From positions 14,287-78,286 of the forward strand of contig CAURGZ010000002.1 of NCBI GenBank assembly GCA_963524285.1: a stretch of 64,000 bases of DNA. Direction: 5' to 3'. Below the pieces are notes generated by a model. That model made no database searches and had not been told where the DNA came from. It was given only the letters and a program-made list of their open reading frames with translations. Shown here piece after piece: positions 45,370 to 59,596 of this stretch. A program made the translations under genes and the position numbers. The DNA is from an uncultured Atopobium sp. (GTDB taxonomy: Bacteria > Actinomycetota > Coriobacteriia > Coriobacteriales > Atopobiaceae). Numbering within the stretch: position 1 is the stretch's first letter; the number at the start of each line of letters is the position of its first letter.

Positions 45370-47091
45370 TTAGTGCTTACGCTTCATAAGACCTACGGCT
45401 GTTAAAGCAGCTCCACCCATAACCATAAGAGGCATTACCAGAAGCTCTTCTCCCGTATTAGGAAGCTGTGCTTTCTTCTTCTTTGTCTTCTTCTCTTTTA
45501 CAGGAGAAGCAGGATTGGAAGGCTCTTCTGGAGCTGGAGTTGGTGTTGGAGTTGGAGTATCAGACTCAACGGTTAGGGTAACCGTCTTTGCTGCCTCGTA
45601 GTCATTGCCTGCAGCTGCAGCATTACCATTGAAGTAATAGTAATAGGTGACGGAGTATGCACCTGGAGTCTTAGAAATCTCTTCTGCCTTCTGAGCAACA
45701 GTTGCTGCATCCATTGTTGCTGTATCAAGTACAACTGTACCGCTCTGATCAACAACCTTAACGCGAGCGTCAGCAGAACCAGCAGCAGGGGTAACCTGAC
45801 CAGCGCTGTGATCAACCATAGCATCAAGGTTATCAAGAATAGTCCAGGAATCCTGGTTAGCGGTAATAGTGCTGTCGTGTGCAGTAACTACCTGCCTGAG
45901 CTCTGTATAAAGAGGAGAGATAACGCCATTGTTAAGATCAAGCTCATCAGTTGAGTTCTCAGAAGCATTGATGACAAGGTTGCCGCTAGAAAGAGAAGTG
46001 TACGAATACTCCTGATACACATCATCAGCAAGATCATTATCAACAGCAAGCTGCCAGCCAGGAAGATTAAGGTACAGTCCCCTATTGGAATTTCCAGTGT
46101 GAACTGAATAGCCATAATCCCTCATGGCATTCTTAATGTTGGTCAAATCAATGTAGTACGCACCGCCGGTATACAGAGCATCGTTCTCCGTTGCGCTGTG
46201 GCGATCTTCATACAGGATATTATCAACGTGAATATCACTTGCAGAAATAGTTGGCATGTAATTCCACTCGTCCTGTGGGATAGCGTAATAGCTACCGTCA
46301 GGCCTAATAATTACGCCAAGATATTTCTTATTGCTGCTAAGAATGGAATTGTTTGTTCCCTCTTCCAAGACCTGCCTTGCAAACCTAACTGAAACACGAG
46401 GGTTTCCGTAAGAGGTTCTGTGATCAAGCAGATACTGGGTAAGACCCACATAGTTGGTACCGTACAGATTAAGAGTAGAGCCATTGGTAAGTGTCAGAGG
46501 AACAGTAAGCGTAATGGTCTCACCAGCGGCCAGAGTGCCCGAGACAGAAACGGAACGCATCTCAGCATTGTCCTGACCAGCTGCCTGGTATGCAGCATAA
46601 GCAGTAGCTGCAGGCTGAGAGCCAGAACCACCGTTCAGTCCACTAATGTTCAGATTAATTGCAGTTGCTGTATTAGTTGATGAGAAGGTAAATCCAGTTG
46701 CACGCAAATCAGGATTAGGGCTTGAGCTGACATAGTAAGTAAGTGGCAGCTGCATAACCTCGTTTACAGAAACTGGAGATGAAGAGATGTTGGTAATCTT
46801 TACCACTGCCTGCAGATTCTGATACTTATCAATATCTACAATGGAGCGGTTCATCTGAGTGGTGTCATTATCCTTATAAGCGTAGTTAGATGTCTGGCCA
46901 GAAGCATCTGTAAAGTAAACAGAACGCTCGATAAGACCATCCGCACTCACAGAAGGAGACACGTTAGTAGTAGTGCCGTTATAAAACGAATTATTACTTG
47001 CAGCGTATGCAATATTTGGCATAAAGATTAAAGCTGCCAAAAATGCAAACATAACAGCAAGAAAACTGCGGCCCTGCATCTTTGATGTCAT
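45370..47091 (-). CDS. Sortase-anchored (LPXTG) surface protein
   Basis: Sec signal (AYA), Pro/Thr linker, LPNTG followed by a hydrophobic segment and KRKH tail. Confidence 0.85.
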   Translation of the reverse strand: MTSKMQGRSFLAVMFAFLAALIFMPNIAYAASNNSFYNGTTTNVSPSVSADGLIERSVYFTDASGQTSNYAYKDNDTTQMNRSIVDIDKYQNLQAVVKITNISSSPVSVNEVMQLPLTYYVSSSPNPDLRATGFTFSSTNTATAINLNISGLNGGSGSQPAATAYAAYQAAGQDNAEMRSVSVSGTLAAGETITLTVPLTLTNGSTLNLYGTNYVGLTQYLLDHRTSYGNPRVSVRFARQVLEEGTNNSILSSNKKYLGVIIRPDGSYYAIPQDEWNYMPTISASDIHVDNILYEDRHSATENDALYTGGAYYIDLTNIKNAMRDYGYSVHTGNSNRGLYLNLPGWQLAVDNDLADDVYQEYSYTSLSSGNLVINASENSTDELDLNNGVISPLYTELRQVVTAHDSTITANQDSWTILDNLDAMVDHSAGQVTPAAGSADARVKVVDQSGTVVLDTATMDAATVAQKAEEISKTPGAYSVTYYYYFNGNAAAAGNDYEAAKTVTLTVESDTPTPTPTPAPEEPSNPASPVKEKKTKKKKAQLPNTGEELLVMPLMVMGGAALTAVGLMKRKH

Positions 47092-48739: not shown

Positions 48740-49132
48740 TTACGCACGAAGACGGTAGCCTTCTTTCTCTACGGCAGCTCGGTACGCATCGACATCAATC
48801 GGATTTTTGCTGAGGATACGTGCCTGACCACCAGCTAGAGTAACCTGCGCCCATGTTCCCTCAATACTATCGAGAGCTCGAGTCACATGATTGACGCAGT
48901 TCTGGCAAGTCATACCACCAATCTCAAATGTTTGAACATAAGGGTAATGAGATTCATCTTTGTCTTCTGGACCATCTGCAGCAGAAACCTGCTCTGTGTT
49001 ACAGGTAGTAACGCCTGTTCCCTCATCAGAGCAGCAGCCTTTTTTACCTGCAGCAATTCCGTAAACACGATAAACCGCAAAACCGCAAAGCGCTACAACA
49101 GCAAGAATAACAATAATATTGATTGGTGACAT
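48740..49132 (-). CDS. Membrane-anchored heavy-metal-associated (HMA) domain protein
   Basis: N-terminal TM helix, KKGCC, C-terminal GMTCQNC HMA motif. Confidence 0.85.
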   Translation of the reverse strand: MSPINIIVILAVVALCGFAVYRVYGIAAGKKGCCSDEGTGVTTCNTEQVSAADGPEDKDESHYPYVQTFEIGGMTCQNCVNHVTRALDSIEGTWAQVTLAGGQARILSKNPIDVDAYRAAVEKEGYRLRA

Positions 49133-49241
49133 ACAAACTTCCTTTCTGTTGCTGTTTTACTACCCACCATTTTCTAGATTATTCAAAAAATGATGTTTTT
49201 CTCGCAAAATTTAACAGCAACAGCAAAAATCGTAATGCAGT

Positions 49242-49646
49242 TTAAGCAGAAAGCTTTGCACCAAGGCCGCGAAGAGCCTCAAGAGCATCGTCATCTGGCT
49301 CAAGGTTGCAGATAAAAGTCTCAACAACGTTGACACCCTCTGCTTCAGCATTCTGCTTCCAAGTCTCCATCCAGTCGCCGGTTCCCCAGTCGTAAGAACC
49401 AAAGAGAGCGGTTGGCTTCTGACCAAGCTTGCCAGCGCAATCGTTGAAGAGCTCCTCAAAATCAGGATCAAGCTCCTCGTCACCCATAGCAGGGCAACCA
49501 AAAGCAAATGCATCGTACTGATCGCACATATCTGCAGAAAACTCAGAAGACTCAATAGCCTCGGTATCTGCTGCGCTTGCAAGCTCTTTTGCCATTGCCT
49601 CAGTATTGCCCGTCATGGACCAATACACAACTGCTACTTTACTCAT
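49242..49646 (-). CDS. Short-chain flavodoxin
   Basis: YWSMTGNTE, GCPAMG.E, FGSYDWG. Confidence 0.93.
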   Translation of the reverse strand: MSKVAVVYWSMTGNTEAMAKELASAADTEAIESSEFSADMCDQYDAFAFGCPAMGDEELDPDFEELFNDCAGKLGQKPTALFGSYDWGTGDWMETWKQNAEAEGVNVVETFICNLEPDDDALEALRGLGAKLSA

Positions 49647-49730
49647 ACATTTCCTCCTTCTGTGTCCAGGTTCCCCCTGGAAAACTACACATTACTTTCA
49701 ATACCTCAACAAGAAATCCAAGCACACCCC

Positions 49731-50477
49731 TTATGCAACCTGACATTTCTTGGTATTGCCATACGATGAGAGAATCTGCGCTAAAGATTCCCCTTGATAA
49801 AAACGATGCTTGCACTGGTCTTCTGCATCTTTAAGTCTCTCGAGACGAAGGCGAGTTTCTTCCGTGTTGTCATAGACTTTCCAAGCACCAGTAAAAAGCT
49901 CAGACTGTCCATTCATAAAGCCTTGAACATCAGCAAGTGGATAGCCCAGTACCAGTCCAATCTCGTGCGGAAACGCGGCTTTTCTTGCGTGAAAAGCAAA
50001 AATTCTTGAACGCATGCTCTTCATCAACGCCTGCACTGACTCAGTGGAATGGCCAAAGGCAGCCAGAAATTCACAGTGCTCTGATTTGGCGAGAATATCC
50101 TCAACAAGCTCAGGTCTATAGGCAACAAACGTCACCTTTCCGCCAGAAATAGCAGAGGTAGCAAGGAGCGTTACCCCAAACAGTGAGAGCTCGTGAGTAG
50201 CGTTGCAGAGAAATGACCTCAACGTTGGATCAGTGCAGACGAGGCTTGCGCAAGAGCTACAAGACTTATGAGAAGCAAATGAAAAGAGCGCAGCCGGCTT
50301 AACGTGAGCAATAACACCAGCAGCACAGCGAACAAATGTTGTTGCAAAATCGTGACAGAGCTCGGGAGTATACGCTCTCCCGCCCTCATTAAAAACAGGC
50401 TTTTTATCAGCGGAATAGGTATAGGGAGAAGGAACGTCTAGGAGCGATGAATTCTCAAAAGAAGTAAGACAATCCAT
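49731..50477 (-). CDS. DUF3793 family protein
   Basis: CA.VIA.VKPAALF, FPHEIGLVLGYPLADV.GF, WKVY; adjacent to flavodoxin. Confidence 0.85.
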   Translation of the reverse strand: MDCLTSFENSSLLDVPSPYTYSADKKPVFNEGGRAYTPELCHDFATTFVRCAAGVIAHVKPAALFSFASHKSCSSCASLVCTDPTLRSFLCNATHELSLFGVTLLATSAISGGKVTFVAYRPELVEDILAKSEHCEFLAAFGHSTESVQALMKSMRSRIFAFHARKAAFPHEIGLVLGYPLADVQGFMNGQSELFTGAWKVYDNTEETRLRLERLKDAEDQCKHRFYQGESLAQILSSYGNTKKCQVA

Positions 50478-50497
50478 ACCGTACTTGCTCCCTTCTT

Positions 50498-50642
50498 AAA
50501 AATGCGCCGTCGACTAAAAGGGAGCCGACGGCGCCTGGATTCCGGACCCTTGGAGAGGGGAAAGGTTCCGGGCTGATAAAGCAATTTTGTTAGAACTAGC
50601 TCCTGTTATATAAAAACCTTAACAAGTTAACCTCTTCTAACT
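50498..50642 (-). ncRNA. Candidate iron-regulated sRNA / leader RNA 1 (CCCUCUCC loop)
   Basis: Promoter TTGCAT-16-TACACT; hairpin CCGGAACC-[UUUCCCCUCUCCAA]-GGGUCCGG; terminal hairpin GCGCCGUCGGCU/AGUCGACGGCGC plus U-tract; no ORF. Ends are approximate. Confidence 0.55.
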
Positions 50643-50676
50643 ATTTAAAGTGTAAGCCATAGCTAACTAAATGCAA
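50626..50676 (-). promoter_or_regulatory. Promoter with two DtxR-like boxes
   Basis: GTAAG-CCATAG-CTAAC (50652-50667) overlapping the spacer and GTTAA-CCTCTT-CTAAC (50626-50641) at the predicted start site. Confidence 0.65.
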
Positions 50677-50708
50677 GAGAAAACTCAAAATATTTTTACT
50701 TTTTGACA

Positions 50709-50749
50709 GAAAAAAGCTCCCGCCTCTTACAAATAAGAAACGGGAGCTC
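50709..50749 (-). terminator. Terminator of the P1B-ATPase operon
   Basis: AGCTCCCG..TCTTA...TAAGA..CGGGAGCT with A-run. Confidence 0.7.
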
Positions 50750-50792
50750 TAACGCGATCTAAAGAAGCGCTTTGTTGACGCACAAGTGCGCT

Positions 50793-52961
50793 CTAGGCAG
50801 CTTGTCCTTCAGTTAAAAGCATCTTTACCTCAGAAGGAACATTAGGGTTATGAGCTGCAGTGGTAAGCAGTGACCTTGTGTTTGCAAGCGTTACCATAAG
50901 TGTCAGAAGATTGTGCATATATGCAGCAGCACTTACGGTAATAAGACCTGCAACGCCTGCAGCAATGAAAGAGCTGTTCAGCGCAACAATCGTACGATAG
51001 TCGGCGTGAATCCTCTTCATTACCTGCTGGCCTAAAAGACGCATGATTACCAGCGATTCAAGCGAATCATTCTTAATCGAAATATCCGCAACTGCGCGAG
51101 CAATATCAGTTGCATCAGACAGAGCCAGTGAAACATCAGAAACAGCTAGTGCAGGTGAATCGTTAATACCATCGCCTACCATTGCAACGGTGTAGCCCTC
51201 CTGCTGGAACTTCTTAACATACTCACACTTATCCTCTGGGAGAATCTGTGCCACATAGTCATCAAGACCCAGCTTCTTAGCAACACTTGCTGCAACGTTT
51301 TCTGAGTCGCCAGTCAACATAACCATACGCTTAACACCAAGAGCACGGAGCTGCGTAATAGTTGCTGCTGCATCTTCCCTTACAGGATCGGTAATACAAA
51401 TTGCTGCAATAAGTTTTGAATCCTCGGACATAAAGATAATGGACGAGGTTGGAGCAATCTGTGCAAGGTCGTCTTGAATTCCCTCGGGCATTGGGGTCTT
51501 CTCGTCATCAAAAATGAAGTGAGCTGAGCCAATGCAGACCTCTTTGTCGTTAACCTTGGTACGAATACCGTGAGCAACAACATACTTAACCTCTGCGTGG
51601 AACTCGTCATTGTGCTTGAGGCCACGTACCTTTGCCTCGTTCACAATTGCTCGAGCCATGCTGTGTGGGAAGTGCTCCTCAATACATGCAGCAAGACGCA
51701 GAAGCTGGTCCTCGGTGCGACCACAGAAGCTGACAATGCACTCAACATGTGGAACTGCCTTTGTCAGCGTACCGGTCTTATCAAAGACGATAAGATCAGC
51801 CGCAGCAATCTTCTCGAGGTATTTTCCGCCCTTAACCGTCATGCCAAACTTAGCTGCCTCATCCATTGCGCTACCCACTGCAACAGGAGTGGAAAGCTTA
51901 ATGGCGCAGGAATAGTCAACCATAAGAACGGTCATAGCCTTAGTGATGTTTCGGGTAATGCCCCAAATACCAAAGAAGGCAAGGAAGCTGTAAGGAACCA
52001 ATGCATCAGAAAGGCGCTCTGCCTTAGACTGTGCGCCAGCCTTAAGCTCAGCAGACTGCTCAACCATATCAACAATATTGTCGATACGAGACATTCCTGG
52101 AGGAGCAGTGACGCTTACCATGAGGTCACCGTCTTCAAGGGCGGTGCCTGCGTAAACGGTTGAGCCAGGCTCTTTGGTTACAAGGCGGGACTCACCTGTC
52201 ATGGCAGCCTCGTTCATCTGGCCAATGCCTTCAACAACTTTGCCATCAACAGGAAGAACGCCACCAGCGCGCTGGTGCAAAATCATGCCCTTCTCAACCT
52301 CAGAAAGGGCAATCATAACGTCCTTACCGTCAATACGAGCCCAGACGTTCTCAGAACGGGTAATTAGGCCATCACGAAGTGCAAGACGTGCTCGGCTTGC
52401 CACGTGGTTCTCCATAGCTGCAGACAGCTCAAGCAAGAACATGACCGTAGATGCATCTGCCCACTCATTTCTTAGAATTGAAGTGGTGATAGCAGTTGCG
52501 TCCAAAACCTCAACGGTCAGCTCTTTCTTAAACAGGCGCTTAACGCCTTCCACGACAAATGGAATGGCGCGGAAAATAACGTAAGCGTAGTTAGCAACTG
52601 CAGGCAGTGGCAAAGAACGCATAATCCAGCGGCGTGCGAATGTGGTCACAACCTCCATCTGGAAACGATTGTTCTCAAGAGCCATCTCAATTGAGCTGCA
52701 GAAGTCTTCAAGACCTGCCTCTTCTTCTCGAGGCAAGTTCAAGACATCAAAGGCGCCAACAGCCGCAAGTACCTGATCTCTCTTGAGAGGATCAAATCTT
52801 AGCAAGAGAGAACCGTTTGCCATGTGAACTTCAGCGTGACGAACTCCGTCAACACGCATCAGCTCATAGGAAATACCACGGGCTTCAGCCTCAACAATAT
52901 GACCCAGGTCGCATTTTGCACGAATGCGACCTGAGATTTCATTAGTAATTGTGAAGCGCAT
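50793..52961 (-). CDS. Heavy-metal P1B-type ATPase, SCA-motif (P1B-6-like)
   Basis: TGES, DYSCA, DKTGT, GDGINDSPAL; N-terminal HMA-like domain without CxxC. Confidence 0.9.
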   Translation of the reverse strand: MRFTITNEISGRIRAKCDLGHIVEAEARGISYELMRVDGVRHAEVHMANGSLLLRFDPLKRDQVLAAVGAFDVLNLPREEEAGLEDFCSSIEMALENNRFQMEVVTTFARRWIMRSLPLPAVANYAYVIFRAIPFVVEGVKRLFKKELTVEVLDATAITTSILRNEWADASTVMFLLELSAAMENHVASRARLALRDGLITRSENVWARIDGKDVMIALSEVEKGMILHQRAGGVLPVDGKVVEGIGQMNEAAMTGESRLVTKEPGSTVYAGTALEDGDLMVSVTAPPGMSRIDNIVDMVEQSAELKAGAQSKAERLSDALVPYSFLAFFGIWGITRNITKAMTVLMVDYSCAIKLSTPVAVGSAMDEAAKFGMTVKGGKYLEKIAAADLIVFDKTGTLTKAVPHVECIVSFCGRTEDQLLRLAACIEEHFPHSMARAIVNEAKVRGLKHNDEFHAEVKYVVAHGIRTKVNDKEVCIGSAHFIFDDEKTPMPEGIQDDLAQIAPTSSIIFMSEDSKLIAAICITDPVREDAAATITQLRALGVKRMVMLTGDSENVAASVAKKLGLDDYVAQILPEDKCEYVKKFQQEGYTVAMVGDGINDSPALAVSDVSLALSDATDIARAVADISIKNDSLESLVIMRLLGQQVMKRIHADYRTIVALNSSFIAAGVAGLITVSAAAYMHNLLTLMVTLANTRSLLTTAAHNPNVPSEVKMLLTEGQAA

Positions 52962-52964
52962 GAA

Positions 52965-53267
52965 TTATGCCTGTGCGCCCTCTGCGTCGACCTGCTTGGT
53001 AACCTCAGCGCGGATACCCTCCTCGAGCTCAGCAAGGCGAGCGCGAACTGCAGCGTCGATCTTGGACTCACGGCGAGCCTCAGCGACAACGTCGTTAGCC
53101 TCGTCAACAACGTTCTGAGTCTCTGCGGAAACGCGGTCAGTTACGCGAAGACCATAGGCAGTTGCTTTGACAGCTGCCTTGTGAAGAGTGCCGTTAGAAG
53201 CAAGACCAGCAACAACGCCAGCAAGTGCAGCGCCACCGGCTGCGAGACACCAATTGTTCAGTTTCAT
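52965..53267 (-). CDS. Small P1B-ATPase-associated protein (DUF1490-like)
   Basis: Gly/Ala-rich hydrophobic N-terminus, KAAVKATAYGLR...VVAEAR. Start set at ATG 53267 (SD GGAGG). Confidence 0.75.
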   Translation of the reverse strand: MKLNNWCLAAGGAALAGVVAGLASNGTLHKAAVKATAYGLRVTDRVSAETQNVVDEANDVVAEARRESKIDAAVRARLAELEEGIRAEVTKQVDAEGAQA

Positions 53268-53557
53268 AAAATCCTCCATCTGCTTTTTGCAAATTAATCG
53301 GTTAATGACCTATTGAAGATAAAATTATTATACGAAAAAAACAAGTGAAAATCATTACTAATTAGTTATCCTAATGAAACAATTGTGCACAAGTAATTTC
53401 TTACCTGCGAAAACGTTTCCTATGGTTAGCCATGGTGTACATATAAATTTTGTGAAGATGCCGCTCTGAAGCGTTACTTAAATTATTGATATTTGCTCAT
53501 ATGGGCTATCAATTAAATGAAAAAATAACATTCTTTCTATGTCGTTATTGTGAAATT

Positions 53558-53580
53558 TAAATTGTGTACAATTTATTTGT
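53558..53580 (+). promoter_or_regulatory. Putative OhrR/MarR operator
   Basis: TAAATTGTGTACAATTTA palindrome overlapping TACAATT-T-ATTTGT, close to the OhrR box TACAATT-N-AATTGTA; upstream of gpx-ohrR. Confidence 0.6.
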
Positions 53581-53668
53581 GTTAGGTTACAGCTACTGGG
53601 GTACACTACCCAAAGAAAATAAGTCATCCAATGCTTCGGACAATCCGCGGCTTGTTGAAAGGAACATC

Positions 53669-54223
53669 ATGGCAAACACCAACATCTATGACCTCTCCGT
53701 AGAAGAGCGTGACGGCTCCGTAACTTCCCTCTCCTCTTTTGATGGAAAGGTTCTTCTGATTGTCAACACTGCAACCGGTTGCGGCTTTACCCCACAGTAT
53801 GAGGATCTTGAGCGCATTTATGCTGCTTATAAAGATCAAGGCTTTGAGATTTTAGACTTCCCTTGCAATCAGTTTGCAGGCCAAGCCCCAGAGTCCGATG
53901 AAGAGATTCACCAGTTCTGCACTATGAAATTTGGCACCGATTTTCCACAGTTCAAGAAGGGCGACGTCAACGGAGAGACCGCAAATCCTCTCTTTGAGCG
54001 TCTTGCAACAGCTTTCCCCTTCCAAGGCTTTGGTAGGGGCATCAAGGCCCTTGCGCTGGATAAATTTGCGAAGGCAAACAACAAGAAGTTTGGTGACAAG
54101 GCTTATATCATGTGGAACTTCACTAAATTCCTTGTAGACCGCCAGGGAAACGTTGTTGCACGCTTTGAGCCAACCACCGATATGGCAGAAGTTGAGTCTG
54201 CAATTAAAAACCTACTTGCGTAA
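53669..54223 (+). CDS. gpx: Glutathione peroxidase family protein (Cys-type)
   Basis: NTATGCGFTPQY, DFPCNQF, WNFTKFL. Start set at ATG 53669 (SD AAGGA). Confidence 0.93.
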   Translation: MANTNIYDLSVEERDGSVTSLSSFDGKVLLIVNTATGCGFTPQYEDLERIYAAYKDQGFEILDFPCNQFAGQAPESDEEIHQFCTMKFGTDFPQFKKGDVNGETANPLFERLATAFPFQGFGRGIKALALDKFAKANNKKFGDKAYIMWNFTKFLVDRQGNVVARFEPTTDMAEVESAIKNLLA

Positions 54224-54244
54224 GGCGAGAGGACCGATTTACTC

Positions 54245-54760
54245 ATGAGTTCTTCTCAAAAAGAAATACAGTCCGTTGCAGCCGCTAGCACTTTTGCTAG
54301 CGGCTCTTCTACACTCGACAACTCCCCCGATATCCCCGAGCTTCTCCTCAAAAACCAGCTCTGCTTCCCGCTCTACAGTGCCTCAAAAGAAGTGGTGCGA
54401 AGGTATACGCCGCTGCTTAAGCCCTTTAATCTAACGTATACACAATATATTGCCATGATGGCGCTTTGGGAACATGAATCCTTGGATGTCAAAACCTTAG
54501 GTGAGTTTTTATTTCTTGATTCAGGCACCTTAACTCCACTTCTTAAAAAGCTTGAGGAGAAGAGCCTTGTACTGCGTCAAAAAACAAACAAAGACGGACG
54601 TCAGCTAATTGTTTCTCTTACCCAAAAAGGCAAAGACCTTAGGCGAGAAATTCAAGTGGTTCCACATCAGATTGGCTCATGCGTTAATCTCTCGCCCGAA
54701 GAAGGCGCTGAACTTAAACGACTGCTTTTAAAGGTTCTTTCTAACGTTACAGAAAGCTAG
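54245..54760 (+). CDS. MarR family regulator, OhrR-like
   Basis: QLCFPLYS redox Cys motif, LTYTQY, LDSGTLTPLLKKLE. Confidence 0.88.
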   Translation: MSSSQKEIQSVAAASTFASGSSTLDNSPDIPELLLKNQLCFPLYSASKEVVRRYTPLLKPFNLTYTQYIAMMALWEHESLDVKTLGEFLFLDSGTLTPLLKKLEEKSLVLRQKTNKDGRQLIVSLTQKGKDLRREIQVVPHQIGSCVNLSPEEGAELKRLLLKVLSNVTES

Positions 54761-54767
54761 ATTTACT

Positions 54768-55940
54768 ATGACCCAATCACAGGTAACCATTACCTCTTCT
54801 GAACGTGAAACTGCCATTGTACGCACTAGCGCCATTGGCATTGCAGCCAATGTTGCCCTTGCGGCATTCAAAGCAGCTGTGGGCATTTTATCTAACTCAA
54901 TTGCCGTTACTCTTGATGCGGTGAACAATCTCTCCGATGCAATTTCATCAATCATCACCATTGTGGGAACCAAACTCTCTAACAAAAAAGCTGATCGCGA
55001 GCACCCCTTTGGACACGGACGCATCGAATACATCACTACAACAGTAATTGCTGCAATCATTATGTATGCAGGTATTTCTTCACTCATCAAATCTATCCAA
55101 GACATCATAGATCCTGTTACTCCAGACTATAGTCCCCTGTCTTTAGTCATCATTGCAGTAGCTGTGCTCGTAAAGATTATTTTGGGTCACTACGTCCGCT
55201 CTGTAGGTAATCGCGTAAACTCCGACACCCTTATTGCATCTGGTTCAGATGCACTTTTTGACGCTACACTCTCCACTTCTGTTTTATTAGCTGCGCTTAT
55301 CTTTATCTTTACAAAAATCAGTCTTGAAGCATATGTGGGCGTTATTATCTCTGTGTTTATCATTAAAGCTTCAATTGAGCTGTTACAGGGATCTATCAAA
55401 GAAATTATTGGTATGCGTCCTGACGCTGCTCTTTCAACACTTATTTACAACATTGTGAAAGAAGATCCAGACGCAGAAGGCGTCTACGACCTTATTATCC
55501 ACAGCTATGGCCCAGATAAATTTGTTGGCTCATTCCACACTGAGGTTCTTGATACCACTTCAGCTATTGAGATTGATACGATGACTAGGCGTCTGAGTAC
55601 AGAGATTTACAAGCAGACATCAGGCAAAATAATCATTGCTGCTATTGGTATTTATGCGAGAAACACCACCGATAATCGCATTGTAAAGATGCGTACTGAA
55701 GTAACTGAAATGGCTTTAGCTCATGAAGGTGTTCTTCAAGTTCATGGTTTTATTGCTGACATTGAAAATCAATTTATGGCATTTGACACTGTTATCGAGT
55801 TTGGTTATGACGGCAAACAAATTGTTCACGATATTATTCATGAAGTAGAAGCAGCCTACCCTGACATGAACGTCTCGGTTCTTTTGGACCGCGATACAAG
55901 CGATCTTTCTGAACATGAAGAAGACAGAGACTTGCACTAA
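54768..55940 (+). CDS. Cation diffusion facilitator (CDF) transporter
   Basis: DAVNNLSD, ADREHPFGHGRIEY, extended C-terminal domain. Confidence 0.92.
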   Translation: MTQSQVTITSSERETAIVRTSAIGIAANVALAAFKAAVGILSNSIAVTLDAVNNLSDAISSIITIVGTKLSNKKADREHPFGHGRIEYITTTVIAAIIMYAGISSLIKSIQDIIDPVTPDYSPLSLVIIAVAVLVKIILGHYVRSVGNRVNSDTLIASGSDALFDATLSTSVLLAALIFIFTKISLEAYVGVIISVFIIKASIELLQGSIKEIIGMRPDAALSTLIYNIVKEDPDAEGVYDLIIHSYGPDKFVGSFHTEVLDTTSAIEIDTMTRRLSTEIYKQTSGKIIIAAIGIYARNTTDNRIVKMRTEVTEMALAHEGVLQVHGFIADIENQFMAFDTVIEFGYDGKQIVHDIIHEVEAAYPDMNVSVLLDRDTSDLSEHEEDRDLH

Positions 55941-55959
55941 AAGCAAGTAAATACATCCT

Positions 55960-56079
55960 AAAAAGGGGCGAGCCGCTGACACCCAGAGTCAGCGGCTCGT
56001 GTTCTACGCTCGCAAGAAAGGGAGAGGGTCTTTCTCCGAGCTACGGGAACCTAAATAAAGCAAGCAAGTAAATTGCTTA
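55960..56079 (-). ncRNA. Candidate iron-regulated sRNA 2 (CCCUCUCC loop)
   Basis: Promoter TTGTAA-17-TACTAT; hairpins AAGCAA/UUGCUU and GCUCG.AGAAAG-[ACCCUCUCC]-CUUUCU..CGAGC; 12-bp stem CGAGCCGCUGAC/GUCAGCGGCUCG then CCCC and a U-tract; no ORF. Ends are approximate. Confidence 0.6.
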
Positions 56080-56084
56080 AAAAC

Positions 56085-56174
56085 ATAGTAAGTTAACCGA
56101 GGGAAACTTACAAGGATTTTTTTAGTTTTTTTATCTGATTTCGTAAACTCTACAAAAAGTTAGACTAAGTTTAC
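56085..56174 (-). promoter_or_regulatory. Promoter with DtxR-like boxes
   Basis: -35 at 56108-56113 and -10 at 56085-56090; GTTAA-CCGAGG-GAAAC (56092-56107) in the spacer; GTTAG-ACTAAG-TTTAC (56159-56174) upstream. Confidence 0.55.
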
Positions 56175-56292
56175 ATATCTATGGATTTTTATCTTAAATC
56201 AAGAAAGTCCGAGATAAATGTGTATTCTCGCCCTTGTTTTTGAATGACCTTTTCAAACATACCTGCCTCTGGTGCGCTTTTTAAATTGGCAC

Positions 56293-56326
56293 AAAAAATC
56301 CCCCGCGCCGAATTGGCGCGGGGGAT
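56293..56326 (-). terminator. feoB terminator
   Basis: ATCCCCCGCGCC...GGCGCGGGGGAT with A-run. Confidence 0.85.
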
Positions 56327-56354: not shown

Positions 56355-59015
56355 TTATGCCTTTGCAACCTCGGTAAGGTTGGTAAGGATCTTATCGTCC
56401 TTCTTATCCCACTTTGGAGCAGGACGGAAGAGCTGGAAGAGAATTGCTGCCAAGAAGGCAAAAGCAATAACAGTCCAGACACCGAAGGAACCAAGAACGA
56501 AGAACTCCCAGAACTGGTTGATGATAAGACCAACAATCCATGCAAATACGCACTGATAGCCAATAGCAAACCAGAACCACTTAGAGTCATTCATCTGACG
56601 ACGGATGGAACCAACTGCAGCAAAGCAAGGTGCGTCAAGCATATTGAATGCAACAAATGCGCACATTGCACCAACGTGAAGAATGCCACCAGCATCGGTG
56701 AACATACCAGCGAAGCCAGACCACATAGTAACGGACTTCTCGCTTGCATCACCAAGACCGTAGAGAACACCAAAGGTAGAGACAAGGTTCTCTTTTGCGA
56801 TCAGAGCGGAGATGGAAGCTGCAGTTGCCTGCCAGTTTGCAAATCCAAGAGGAGCAAAGATAACGCCGATGAAACCACCAACAGCTGCAAGCAGGGAGAA
56901 GTCCATGACATTCTCAGGAGCGCCCTCGATGCCTGGAAGGTAACCAAAGACGCCGTTTGCGCCCTCCCAGGTTGCCCAACCAAAGTTGGAAAGAACCCAG
57001 ATACCAATAGCCGCTGCGAAGATGATGGTACCAGCCTTAAGGATGTATGCAGAGATACGCTCCCAAACGTGCATTGCCCAAGACTTGATAGAAGGCATGT
57101 GGTAATCAGGAAGCTCCATAACAAATGGTGCAGGCTCGCCCTCAAATGCCTTAGTCTTCTTCAGCATGACTGCAGAAATAACAATCATTGCAACGCCAAG
57201 GAAGTAGAAAGCAGGAGCAACCCACCAAGCAGAAGAGCCACCAATAAGAACACCCATAACCAAAGCAATGATTGGCTGCTTTGCGGAGCAAGGAATCATG
57301 GTGGTGAGCATTGCAGTCATACGGCGGTCCTTCTCGTTCTCAATGGTACGAGTAGAAAGAACGCCAGGAACACCACAGCCAGAAGAAATCAAAAGTGGAA
57401 TGAAGGACTTGCCGGACAGGCCAAAGCGACGGAACACGCGGTCCATAACAAAGGCAACACGGCTCATGTAACCGCAGTCCTCAAGGAAGCACAGCATGAC
57501 AAACAGAACAAGCATCTGTGGGATAAAGCCAAGGACAGAGCCAACGCCGCCAATAATACCGTCAACTACAAGGCTAGTGACAACGGGACTTGCGCCAGCA
57601 CCTGCAAGAGCACCGCGAGCTAGATCAGGAATACCTGGGACATACATGCCGTACTCGGAAGCCTCTGGCTCAGTAGCAGCACCTTCAACAGCAGTCTTAA
57701 AGCCAGCGGCAGTTACGCCACCAAGAGTCTGGAGTTCCTGACCCTCAGCAAGAATTGGTTTGCCGTCAGCGTCAAGCTTAAGAGGATTGCCGTCAGTATC
57801 AACGAAGTTGCCATCCTCGTCATGAACTGGTGCGCTCAGAGCAACAACGTTCTTCTTGGCAGTCTCTGCCTCAAAGCTGGTGATAGCGTCAGAATCCCAC
57901 TGTTTAGCTTCGATTGCAGCACGAACCTCAGTGGTATCAATACCAGCCTCGTCAGCTGCGTTGAGATAAGCGTCGATCTGGTCACCATAGTGATGAGAGT
58001 CAAACTCATCTTTTGCCTCATTGTACTCGGCGTCGCCGATACCCATGAAGTGGAAACCCTTGTCAAACAGGTTGTCGTTGACCCAGTCAGTTGCTCCCGT
58101 ACCAACAGTAGAGATGGAAATGAAGTACACAAGAGCCATGATGATAACGAAGATTGGAAGACCGAGGATACGGTTAGTAACAACGCGGTCAATCTTCTCG
58201 GAAGTGGTCAGCTTCTTTGGAGCCTTCTTGACACAAGCTGCCATGACGCCAGCAATCCACTCATAACGGTCAGAAGTGATGATGGACTCAGCGTCGTCGT
58301 CACGAGACTGCTCAACTGCAGCAATGATCTTCTCGAGCTCAGCGGTCTTCTCGGCAGAAAGGTTAAGAGGGGCAATTGCATTTGCATCGCGCTCAAAGAC
58401 CTTAATGGAGTACCAACGAGAAAGAGTTGCAGGAGCAAGGCCCTCGATTGCAGTTGCAATCTTGCCAAGAGCCTCTTCAACCTCTGGGGTAAAGCACTTA
58501 ACACCCTCAGCAGGAGTTCCCTCCTGGCCGGCCTTAATTGCAGTCTTTACCAGAGTGTCAATGTTCTTGTTGCGAAGTGCAGAAACCTCAATAACCTCAA
58601 CACCAAGCTGCTTGGAAAGCTCCTTGGTATCAATGACGTCACCGGACTCCTTGAGCAGGTCAACCATGTTAAGACCAAGGATAACTGGACGGCCAGCCTC
58701 AAGAATCTGAGTAGTCAGATAGAGGTTACGCTCCAGGTTGGTAACATCGAGAAGGTCAATAATGGCGTCTGGGCGCTCATTAATGAGGTAGTCACGAGAT
58801 ACCTGCTCCTCAGGTGAATAAGGAGACAGAGAGTAAATACCAGGAAGGTCGACAAAGGTGACGTCCTTATCGGCACGCCAATTTGCCTGCTTCTTCTCAA
58901 CAGTAACGCCTGGCCAGTTGCCGACGTAGCCGTTTGAGCCCGTAAGCTCATTGAATAGGGTGGTCTTACCGCAGTTTGGATTACCTGCAAGACCAATAAT
59001 AGTCTTTTGTGCCAT
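56355..59015 (-). CDS. feoB: Ferrous iron transporter B
   Basis: GNPNCGKTT, VGNWPGVTVE, DLPGIYSL, LEDCGYM.R, GCGVP, PFVMELP. Confidence 0.97.
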   Translation of the reverse strand: MAQKTIIGLAGNPNCGKTTLFNELTGSNGYVGNWPGVTVEKKQANWRADKDVTFVDLPGIYSLSPYSPEEQVSRDYLINERPDAIIDLLDVTNLERNLYLTTQILEAGRPVILGLNMVDLLKESGDVIDTKELSKQLGVEVIEVSALRNKNIDTLVKTAIKAGQEGTPAEGVKCFTPEVEEALGKIATAIEGLAPATLSRWYSIKVFERDANAIAPLNLSAEKTAELEKIIAAVEQSRDDDAESIITSDRYEWIAGVMAACVKKAPKKLTTSEKIDRVVTNRILGLPIFVIIMALVYFISISTVGTGATDWVNDNLFDKGFHFMGIGDAEYNEAKDEFDSHHYGDQIDAYLNAADEAGIDTTEVRAAIEAKQWDSDAITSFEAETAKKNVVALSAPVHDEDGNFVDTDGNPLKLDADGKPILAEGQELQTLGGVTAAGFKTAVEGAATEPEASEYGMYVPGIPDLARGALAGAGASPVVTSLVVDGIIGGVGSVLGFIPQMLVLFVMLCFLEDCGYMSRVAFVMDRVFRRFGLSGKSFIPLLISSGCGVPGVLSTRTIENEKDRRMTAMLTTMIPCSAKQPIIALVMGVLIGGSSAWWVAPAFYFLGVAMIVISAVMLKKTKAFEGEPAPFVMELPDYHMPSIKSWAMHVWERISAYILKAGTIIFAAAIGIWVLSNFGWATWEGANGVFGYLPGIEGAPENVMDFSLLAAVGGFIGVIFAPLGFANWQATAASISALIAKENLVSTFGVLYGLGDASEKSVTMWSGFAGMFTDAGGILHVGAMCAFVAFNMLDAPCFAAVGSIRRQMNDSKWFWFAIGYQCVFAWIVGLIINQFWEFFVLGSFGVWTVIAFAFLAAILFQLFRPAPKWDKKDDKILTNLTEVAKA

Positions 59016-59260
59016 TAGGCTTCCTCTACCTTGTGAACGTCTACTACTTCAATGCTTGCAGCTTCATCCTTGCGGATAGAAAGCTCGTAGCCACGAACTG
59101 TGAGCTCAATTGGGTCTCCCAGTGGTGCTACTTTCTTGACGTAAACCTCAGTGCCCTTAGTAAGGCCCATGTCCATGATGCGACGTTTCACGGCGCCTAC
59201 ACCCTTTAGCGCAGCAACCGTGCAACTCTCCCCCACCTTAACTTCTTTCAGAGTTGCCAT
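59015..59260 (-). CDS. feoA: Ferrous iron transport protein A
   Basis: RRIMDMGL, APLGDP, RGYELSIRK. Confidence 0.95.
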   Translation of the reverse strand: MATLKEVKVGESCTVAALKGVGAVKRRIMDMGLTKGTEVYVKKVAPLGDPIELTVRGYELSIRKDEAASIEVVDVHKVEEA

Positions 59261-59329
59261 AACCTTCCTTTCATCGAAACACGTATTAAAAGCCGCGGGT
59301 TTTACCAGCAGCGCAATACAACAAAGTGT

Positions 59330-59596
59330 TTAGAGCGGAGAAACCATGATGTGCGACGACATCTGACGGTTCAGTCCAAGTCGTGCGCCCTTAACGCTAA
59401 CAATAACGTCGCCGTTGACTCGTGAAATAACCTTTACCTCGGCGCCCTCAACAAAACCAAGTGTTGAGAGGTGCTGGCGAAGATCAGAAGCACCCTTAAC
59501 CGTTATGATCAGCGCAGTCTCTCCCTCACCAAGCATGGCAAGAGGAAGAACTGGACCAGAATTCGCAGGACCCTGTGAGGTCTTTTCTGTATCCAT
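59330..59596 (-). CDS. feoA: Ferrous iron transport protein A (second copy)
   Basis: HLSTLGFVEG, VKGARLGL. Confidence 0.88.
   Translation of the reverse strand: MDTEKTSQGPANSGPVLPLAMLGEGETALIITVKGASDLRQHLSTLGFVEGAEVKVISRVNGDVIVSVKGARLGLNRQMSSHIMVSPL

Follow-up and report, generated by a model that had tools for sequence, protein, structure and literature searches.

A candidate iron-sparing small RNA family with an anti-Shine-Dalgarno loop beside iron-uptake and flavodoxin genes in Atopobiaceae

The iron-sparing small RNAs (sRNAs) IsrR and FsrA are repressed by Fur and direct single-stranded C-rich regions against the Shine-Dalgarno (SD) sequences of iron-enzyme mRNAs; IsrR, with a length of 174 nt, contains three stem-loops and three C-rich regions, as set out in the parts of PMC9410917 covered here. 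MrsI (ncRv11846) has been reported from the actinobacterial families Mycobacteriaceae and Nocardiaceae (PMC6016810, in part) and, according to the same parts of PMC9410917, does not bind the SD sequence through a C-rich motif. In this study, we analyzed two intergenic units, RNA A and RNA B, on the minus strand of a 64,000-nt stretch (the window) of the genome of an uncultured Atopobium sp. (contig CAURGZ010000002.1, positions 14,287 to 78,286), which an earlier note had proposed to be a pair of iron-regulated RNAs blocking ribosome-binding sites. A and B are real and represent two copies of one RNA family, which occurs widely in Atopobiaceae, next to genes for iron uptake and flavodoxin. Based on comparative sequence analysis, this is probably a metal-repressed, iron-sparing sRNA family that would block translation, with A and B as paralogous, trans-acting members.

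MrsI represents the closest functional analogue, being actinobacterial, with a site for IdeR (a DtxR-family protein) near its start, a 6-nt seed in an apical hairpin loop before the terminator and non-essential iron proteins as targets (PMC6016810, in part). Compared by description rather than sequence, MrsI differs from the family studied here, which has a C-rich anti-SD seed, multiple copies and a mobile gene position. The arrangement of the regulatory sites recalls isrR, which carries one box in its promoter and one just after the start (PMC9410917, in part), as does RNA A. However, the RNAs described here differ from IsrR and FsrA in having one seed loop plus a terminator, a non-Fur-like box, no Rfam match and fermentative electron-transfer enzymes as predicted targets. 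We rejected orthology with IsrR and FsrA because of the missing Rfam match, an architecture different from that given in the covered parts of PMC9410917 and the type of box. 6C RNA (RF01066) also has two hairpins with C-rich loops, whose pairing with G-rich ribosome-binding sites needs no chaperone (PMC6486639, in part), whereas the loop here is CCUCUCC and not a run of C, and the parts of PMC6486639 covered give no iron link for 6C. The best 6C score, 34.9 bits in one of 20 relative loci, did not reach the gathering score of 47 bits, and no 6C match was listed for the window region. Similar C/U-rich anti-SD hairpin loops are found in the cuckoo RNAs (ar14, RF02344; CcsR1, RF02791) and in sX13 (RF02232), but these are proteobacterial and show the loop word CCUCCUCCC; their scores of 21-31 bits stayed below thresholds of 50-65 bits (58.8 for RF02344, 65.3 for RF02791). 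Overall, no Rfam family reached its threshold in the window or its relatives, where only sub-threshold matches occurred, in agreement with the novelty anticipated earlier. A literature search of titles and abstract openings, subscription journals excluded, found no description of such an RNA. The main text of PMC11109978 contains none of the taxon or gene terms, while its supplement might list such a motif, and one supplement of PMC8632094 contains none of these terms either. The RNA family is apparently undescribed. If the proposed function is true, it would provide an iron-sparing riboregulator for Coriobacteriia, for which the literature search found no other, and the combination of DtxR-type control (as in MrsI) with a C-rich anti-SD seed (as in FsrA and IsrR) would point to another independent origin of this strategy.

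RNA A (50498..50642) has a predicted length of ~145 nt and RNA B (55960..56079) of ~120 nt, the 5′ end of A being a prediction. The promoter-like hexamers, the 9-mer, the 8-mer loops and the terminator hairpins with T-runs listed in the earlier note are all present. The predicted promoters are located at 50649..50676 for A (−35 at 50676-50671, −10 at 50654-50649; kept in genus relatives) and at 56085..56113 for B. Neither was among the seven sites of a consensus scan, as fewer than nine of 12 positions matched, but both are kept in relatives despite this sub-cut-off score. The seed hairpin of A (50542..50571) presents the loop CCCCUCUCC and that of B (56001..56050) the loop ACCCUCUCC; common to both is the 8-mer CCCTCTCC, at 50559-50552 and 56028-56021, respectively. 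The 9-mer lies at 50584-50576 in A and at 56063-56055 in B, and this 9-mer followed by the 8-mer within 60 nt occurs twice in the 1.46 Mb genome, both times here. Each unit ends in a terminator hairpin followed by a T-run, at 50498..50535 in A (hairpin 50534-50504, with a C/U-rich loop) and at 55960..55999 in B (hairpin 55999-55969). Both are unusually stable in folding (z −4.6 for A, −5.0 for B), with none of 200 shuffles as stable. We rejected A and B as small coding genes, since stops occur in every frame of A and Met in no frame of either unit. A feature absent from the earlier note is that the ribosome-binding site of the DUF3793-flavodoxin genes follows directly on the T-run of A. The space between this terminator and the ribosome-binding site is too short for a promoter, and the genes should therefore depend on read-through. 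The terminator of A can alternatively pair with this ribosome-binding site, the two folds being nearly equal in energy (−26.0 vs −25.9 kcal/mol). Within the genus, unit A matched 22 of 24 sampled genomes and the unit B region 62 of 67, but these genomes are too closely related for the matches to show selection.

For a comparison beyond the genus, we collected 46 loci surrounding either unit B or the DUF3793 gene, six from the genus and 40 from other genera. Filtering for a hairpin that carries the loop 7-mer and precedes a terminator flagged 31 of the 46; two spurious-looking matches were dropped, the divergent locus L089 was not aligned and one further copy was included by eye. Model R1 was built from 26 copies, all outside the genus, using a plain MAFFT alignment without structural guidance. 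Searching this genome with R1 at E ≤ 1 gave two matches, A (50495-50586, E 2e-9) and B (55961-56058, E 5e-6). Because a model derived from other genera finds exactly these two places, A and B belong to one family. The stems covary across Atopobiaceae, a check that had been suggested earlier: two-sided changes were found in 19 of 22 pairs of the 26-copy alignment, with a covariation of 0.37 vs 0.17 in shuffled and ≤ 0.13 in slid alignments. Eight of these 19 pairs fall in the seed hairpin (8/10 pairs there), the other 11 in the terminator, where they are expected of any terminator. The conserved core consists of a U-rich linker, a sequence-variable stem with the loop (A)CCCUCUCC(C), exposing CCUCUCC, and a GC-rich terminator. 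Most copies, B being an exception, also have a C-rich terminator loop. Of the shared design proposed for the pair, the loop stem and the terminator hairpin thus hold family-wide, whereas the 9-mer and the 5′ hairpin were rejected as family features because both vary even among genus members.

Thirty genomes of the family were searched with a second model, and 24 gave strong matches (E < 1e-9). Twenty of the 30 had been chosen for an RNA already known there; among the remaining 10, four matched strongly. No strong match was found in 10 genomes from other families. A sample of the class showed weak matches in 5/136 genomes (only 25 candidates scored per genome), and in family f3, 17 of 41 matched at E ≤ 0.01 (best 5e-8). 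Copy number ranges from one to at least three per genome, so that the fixed two-member system of the earlier note does not hold. In model-negative genomes, a hairpin scan near feoB or flavodoxin genes found five candidates in 410 kb vs one in 401 kb of control loci, and the core 6-mer followed within 300 nt after four of 20 such genes vs a background of 7%. These scans are suggestive at most. Possible divergent homologs are seen in G283, with a promoter-led copy after feoB, in G122, with one more, and in G100, G130, G036 and G031, with C-rich feoB 3′ untranslated regions (UTRs). In genus g54 of family f3, C-rich two-hairpin elements with weak model scores lie directly 3′ of FAD-dependent oxidoreductase genes (L113, L118), and a similar weakly scoring element occupies an unannotated position in L116; the three may belong to a separate 3′-UTR family.

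In order to identify predicted targets, we scanned 1154 genes with upstream sequence, based on our own gene calls with approximate starts. The loop complement GGAGAGG was found within 22 nt of the start in 17 of these genes. Eight of the 17 encode iron proteins by Pfam, namely PFOR, ferredoxin, rubrerythrin, two Fe-alcohol dehydrogenases, a DHODB Fe-S subunit (which we take to be NfnA-like), a 4Fe-4S dicluster protein and a BcrAD/BadFG activase, which counts as an Fe-S protein. The enrichment P depends on the assumed total of iron genes, being 2e-9 for 30, ~6e-7 for 60 and 6e-4 for 150. The shorter GAGAGG precedes 53 of the 1154 genes and adds rubredoxin, desulfoferrodoxin and a hemerythrin-domain protein. 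Complementarity of a seed to the translation-start regions of iron-protein mRNAs, as expected of iron-sparing sRNAs, is hence found computationally. An altered anti-SD sequence behind the motif is unlikely, as the commonest upstream 6-mers of the genome are ordinary; the 16S tail was not found in the assembly.

Across genomes, the sites of several predicted targets are conserved. The 7-mer was present at the PFOR site in 29 of 30 genomes (30 fetched of 38 with a match), the 6-mer at the ferredoxin site in 18/18 and at the NfnA-like site in 27/29 (of 31 genomes). For a hydrogenase-like Fe_hyd_lg_C protein, a test fixed beforehand, the site in this genome is without the 6-mer and 21 of 26 orthologs have it. 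The control NusA, likewise fixed beforehand, shows the opposite pattern, since its own site has the 6-mer, which is kept in 1/29 genomes (one without a clear start). Flavodoxin sites never carried the 6-mer (0/40). Further controls were low, with P1B ATPase 0/10, feoA 1/16, feoB 1/10, enolase 3/12, the gene after nusA 1/29, three additional genes at 0/13, 0/12 and 0/8, and the Fe-S gene that follows the NfnA-like gene in the same operon at 0/26. A switch from ferredoxin to flavodoxin appears to be written into the ribosome-binding sites of both genes and, unusually, the target set is legible by comparative genomics.

The family takes three placements: stand-alone with its own promoter (B), as leader of DUF3793 (A and many relatives), and immediately 3′ of a flavodoxin, feoB or enolase stop codon. 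The claim that the units are not 3′ UTRs is correct for A and B in this genome, whereas relatives often carry the RNA as a 3′ UTR and A itself doubles as the 5′ leader of the DUF3793-flavodoxin-HMA genes. Inspection by eye showed that the enolase promoter carries a box like those at A and B in 6/7 enolase-type loci (presumably enolase, judging by its sequence), and the RNA therefore seems to be under one control whichever placement it takes. The boxed DUF3793-flavodoxin operon has taken up enolase in several genera (L060, L079, L081, L087, L088, L095), an unexpected member of a presumed iron regulon. Both genomes of genus g46 (L156, L160, ~1420-1510) show a hydrophobic open reading frame of ~28 codons between the boxed promoter and the RNA, with substitutions, and a dual-function transcript is possible there. 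In L106 (G090), tandem flavodoxin genes are each followed by their own RNA copy.

Palindromic, operator-like boxes overlap both promoters, and similar boxes were seen by eye at the promoters of relatives. The pattern described in the earlier note lies over the spacer and −10 of A (50652..50667), where a putative repressor would bind; for B, the spacer box is degenerate (56107-56092) and a good box is located upstream of the promoter (56159..56174). A second box just after the predicted start of A (50626..50641) coincides with the left arm of the 5′ hairpin described previously. The genome encodes one DtxR-family and one Fur-family protein. The box is not similar to the Fur consensus and resembles what we take to be half of a DtxR operator. 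The most likely repressor of the boxed promoters would be the single DtxR-family protein. The DtxR-family gene of G036 (L282:1459-1818) carries the target 7-mer at its own ribosome-binding site, which would make a feedback loop; that of the genome studied here has a ribosome-binding site without the 7-mer.

The one-family model, the covariation of the stems and the concentration and conservation of the loop complement at iron-protein ribosome-binding sites all support the anti-SD, iron-sparing pair put forward earlier. According to this proposal, when iron is short, a metal-dependent repressor would leave the boxed promoters, and A and B would be made together with the Feo and flavodoxin genes. 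The CCUCUCC loop would then pair with the GGAGAGG/GAGAGG variant of the SD region carried by dispensable iron proteins (PFOR, ferredoxin, the NfnA-like Fe-S subunit, the hydrogenase-like protein, rubrerythrin and the Fe-alcohol dehydrogenases) and is predicted to block their translation, while flavodoxin, whose site is without the variant, would escape.

Several results weigh against this proposal. The 6-mer is kept at the rubrerythrin site in only 18 of 30 genomes (of 36), and a pattern-led check of G107 and G036 found an iron-enzyme Pfam match at 2/10 and 0/15 candidate starts, respectively, covering only the first 30 matches in each (of 165 and 98, respectively), with many candidates being false starts. 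The genomes are kin, so that the conservation counts are not independent, and the loop invariance is partly built in, since the training copies were chosen by the 7-mer; copies found by the model alone mostly keep it. A cysteine-motif classifier, insensitive and later replaced by Pfam on the 17 GGAGAGG genes, recognized two of them (p = 0.058), and none of 13 genes with a radical-SAM motif carries the 7-mer. The comparison of RNA-target interaction energies suggested earlier was unsuccessful, as whole-molecule hybridisation energies did not separate 10 predicted targets from three controls. Such unselective energies, the nine of 17 GGAGAGG genes that do not encode iron proteins and the sub-threshold resemblance to 6C, ar14, CcsR1 and sX13 would all fit a general anti-SD RNA (6C- or cuckoo-like) damping translation broadly under stress without an iron-specific target set. 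This is very improbable, however, given that conservation of the site is seen at iron genes but not at NusA or the other controls, and that the most frequent upstream 6-mers of the genome are not matched by the loop. Moreover, the PFOR site is kept in nine of 10 genomes without a strong model match, with no correlation there between the occurrence of RNA and site; these sites may reflect divergent RNA homologs or another constraint. Together with the many copies in 5′ or 3′ UTRs and the near-equal pairing of the A terminator loop with the DUF3793 ribosome-binding site, this persistence would suit a cis element, i.e. a terminator or attenuator tuning read-through into DUF3793-flavodoxin or protecting mRNA 3′ ends, the SD variant being kept for other reasons such as an RNA-binding protein or translation strength. 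Yet B and several relatives have their own promoter and no same-strand gene downstream, some model-negative genomes have divergent C-rich elements close to feoB or flavodoxin, and a cis role leaves unexplained why an exposed loop should be perfectly complementary to a motif that is enriched at iron genes far away; we give a cis role a distinctly small chance.

The regulator, too, fits the iron-sparing proposal imperfectly. With 142 amino acids, the DtxR-family protein has no third domain and scores best with MntR models, all below cut-off. Aligned to solved relatives, it has Cys at one Fe-type ligand position and Asp replacing Met at the other, a mixed Fe-/Mn-type set, whereas Fe-sensing DtxR/IdeR regulators use Met10 and Cys102 (PMC11672702, in part). 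The same RNA and targets might thus respond to another signal, with the MntR-like protein sensing manganese or the Fur-family protein encoded in the genome sensing oxidative stress, and would then shut down oxygen-sensitive iron enzymes; the neighbouring peroxidase and CDF pump would be in line with this. We consider such a signal unlikely, because the Cys at the second Fe-type position is retained, the predicted targets include oxidative-defence iron proteins (rubrerythrin and, by the 6-mer, desulfoferrodoxin), and the adjoining feoAB and flavodoxin genes form a typical iron-starvation set.

Extending the iron-sparing proposal, we tentatively suggest that Coriobacteriia might use two ribosome-binding-site dialects, with GAGAGG marking dispensable iron enzymes and the ordinary SD sequence their iron-free replacements. 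One ancient sRNA family might read this mark class-wide, move between stand-alone, 5′-leader and 3′-UTR positions under the same repressor and change its seed along with the target sites. Such a co-change is hinted at by a single case, G031, whose PFOR site carries a longer AG repeat (one of 30 genomes) with a matching longer CU repeat after feoB. If this were true, the iron-sparing regulon would be legible from the SD sequence alone.

Both RNAs are embedded in an iron cluster, which runs in the order feoA-feoA-feoB, RNA B, a convergent peroxidase-MarR-CDF block, a DUF1490-like gene and P1B ATPase, RNA A, and DUF3793-flavodoxin-HMA (Pfam; minus strand unless stated). The feoA-feoA-feoB genes (56355..59596) end in a terminator at 56327-56297, and B lies between this and the convergent CDF gene of the plus-strand block (53564..55940; glutathione peroxidase, MarR-family and CDF transporter genes). 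Upstream of A, the DUF1490-like and P1B-type ATPase genes (50793..53279) are closed by a terminator at 50750-50713; separate upstream terminators had been reported for both units and are present. The DUF3793, flavodoxin and HMA-domain genes (48740..50477) follow directly downstream of A. Among named records, those nearest to the DUF3793 gene belong to Lancefieldella parvula and Atopobium sp., which places the genome in that genus of Atopobiaceae. Unit B is flanked by a 12-nt direct repeat (56073-56062 and 55952-55941, minus strand), whose two occurrences genome-wide are both at this position and which is absent from more distant genus members. The ~76 nt between the feoB terminator and promoter B (56219-56294) occur in this genome and a minority of others in the genus but are missing in most, as seen from split matches. 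Further along the minus strand, 45370-47091 encodes a secreted-looking protein of 573 amino acids with a sortase-like C-terminal anchor and without a Pfam match.

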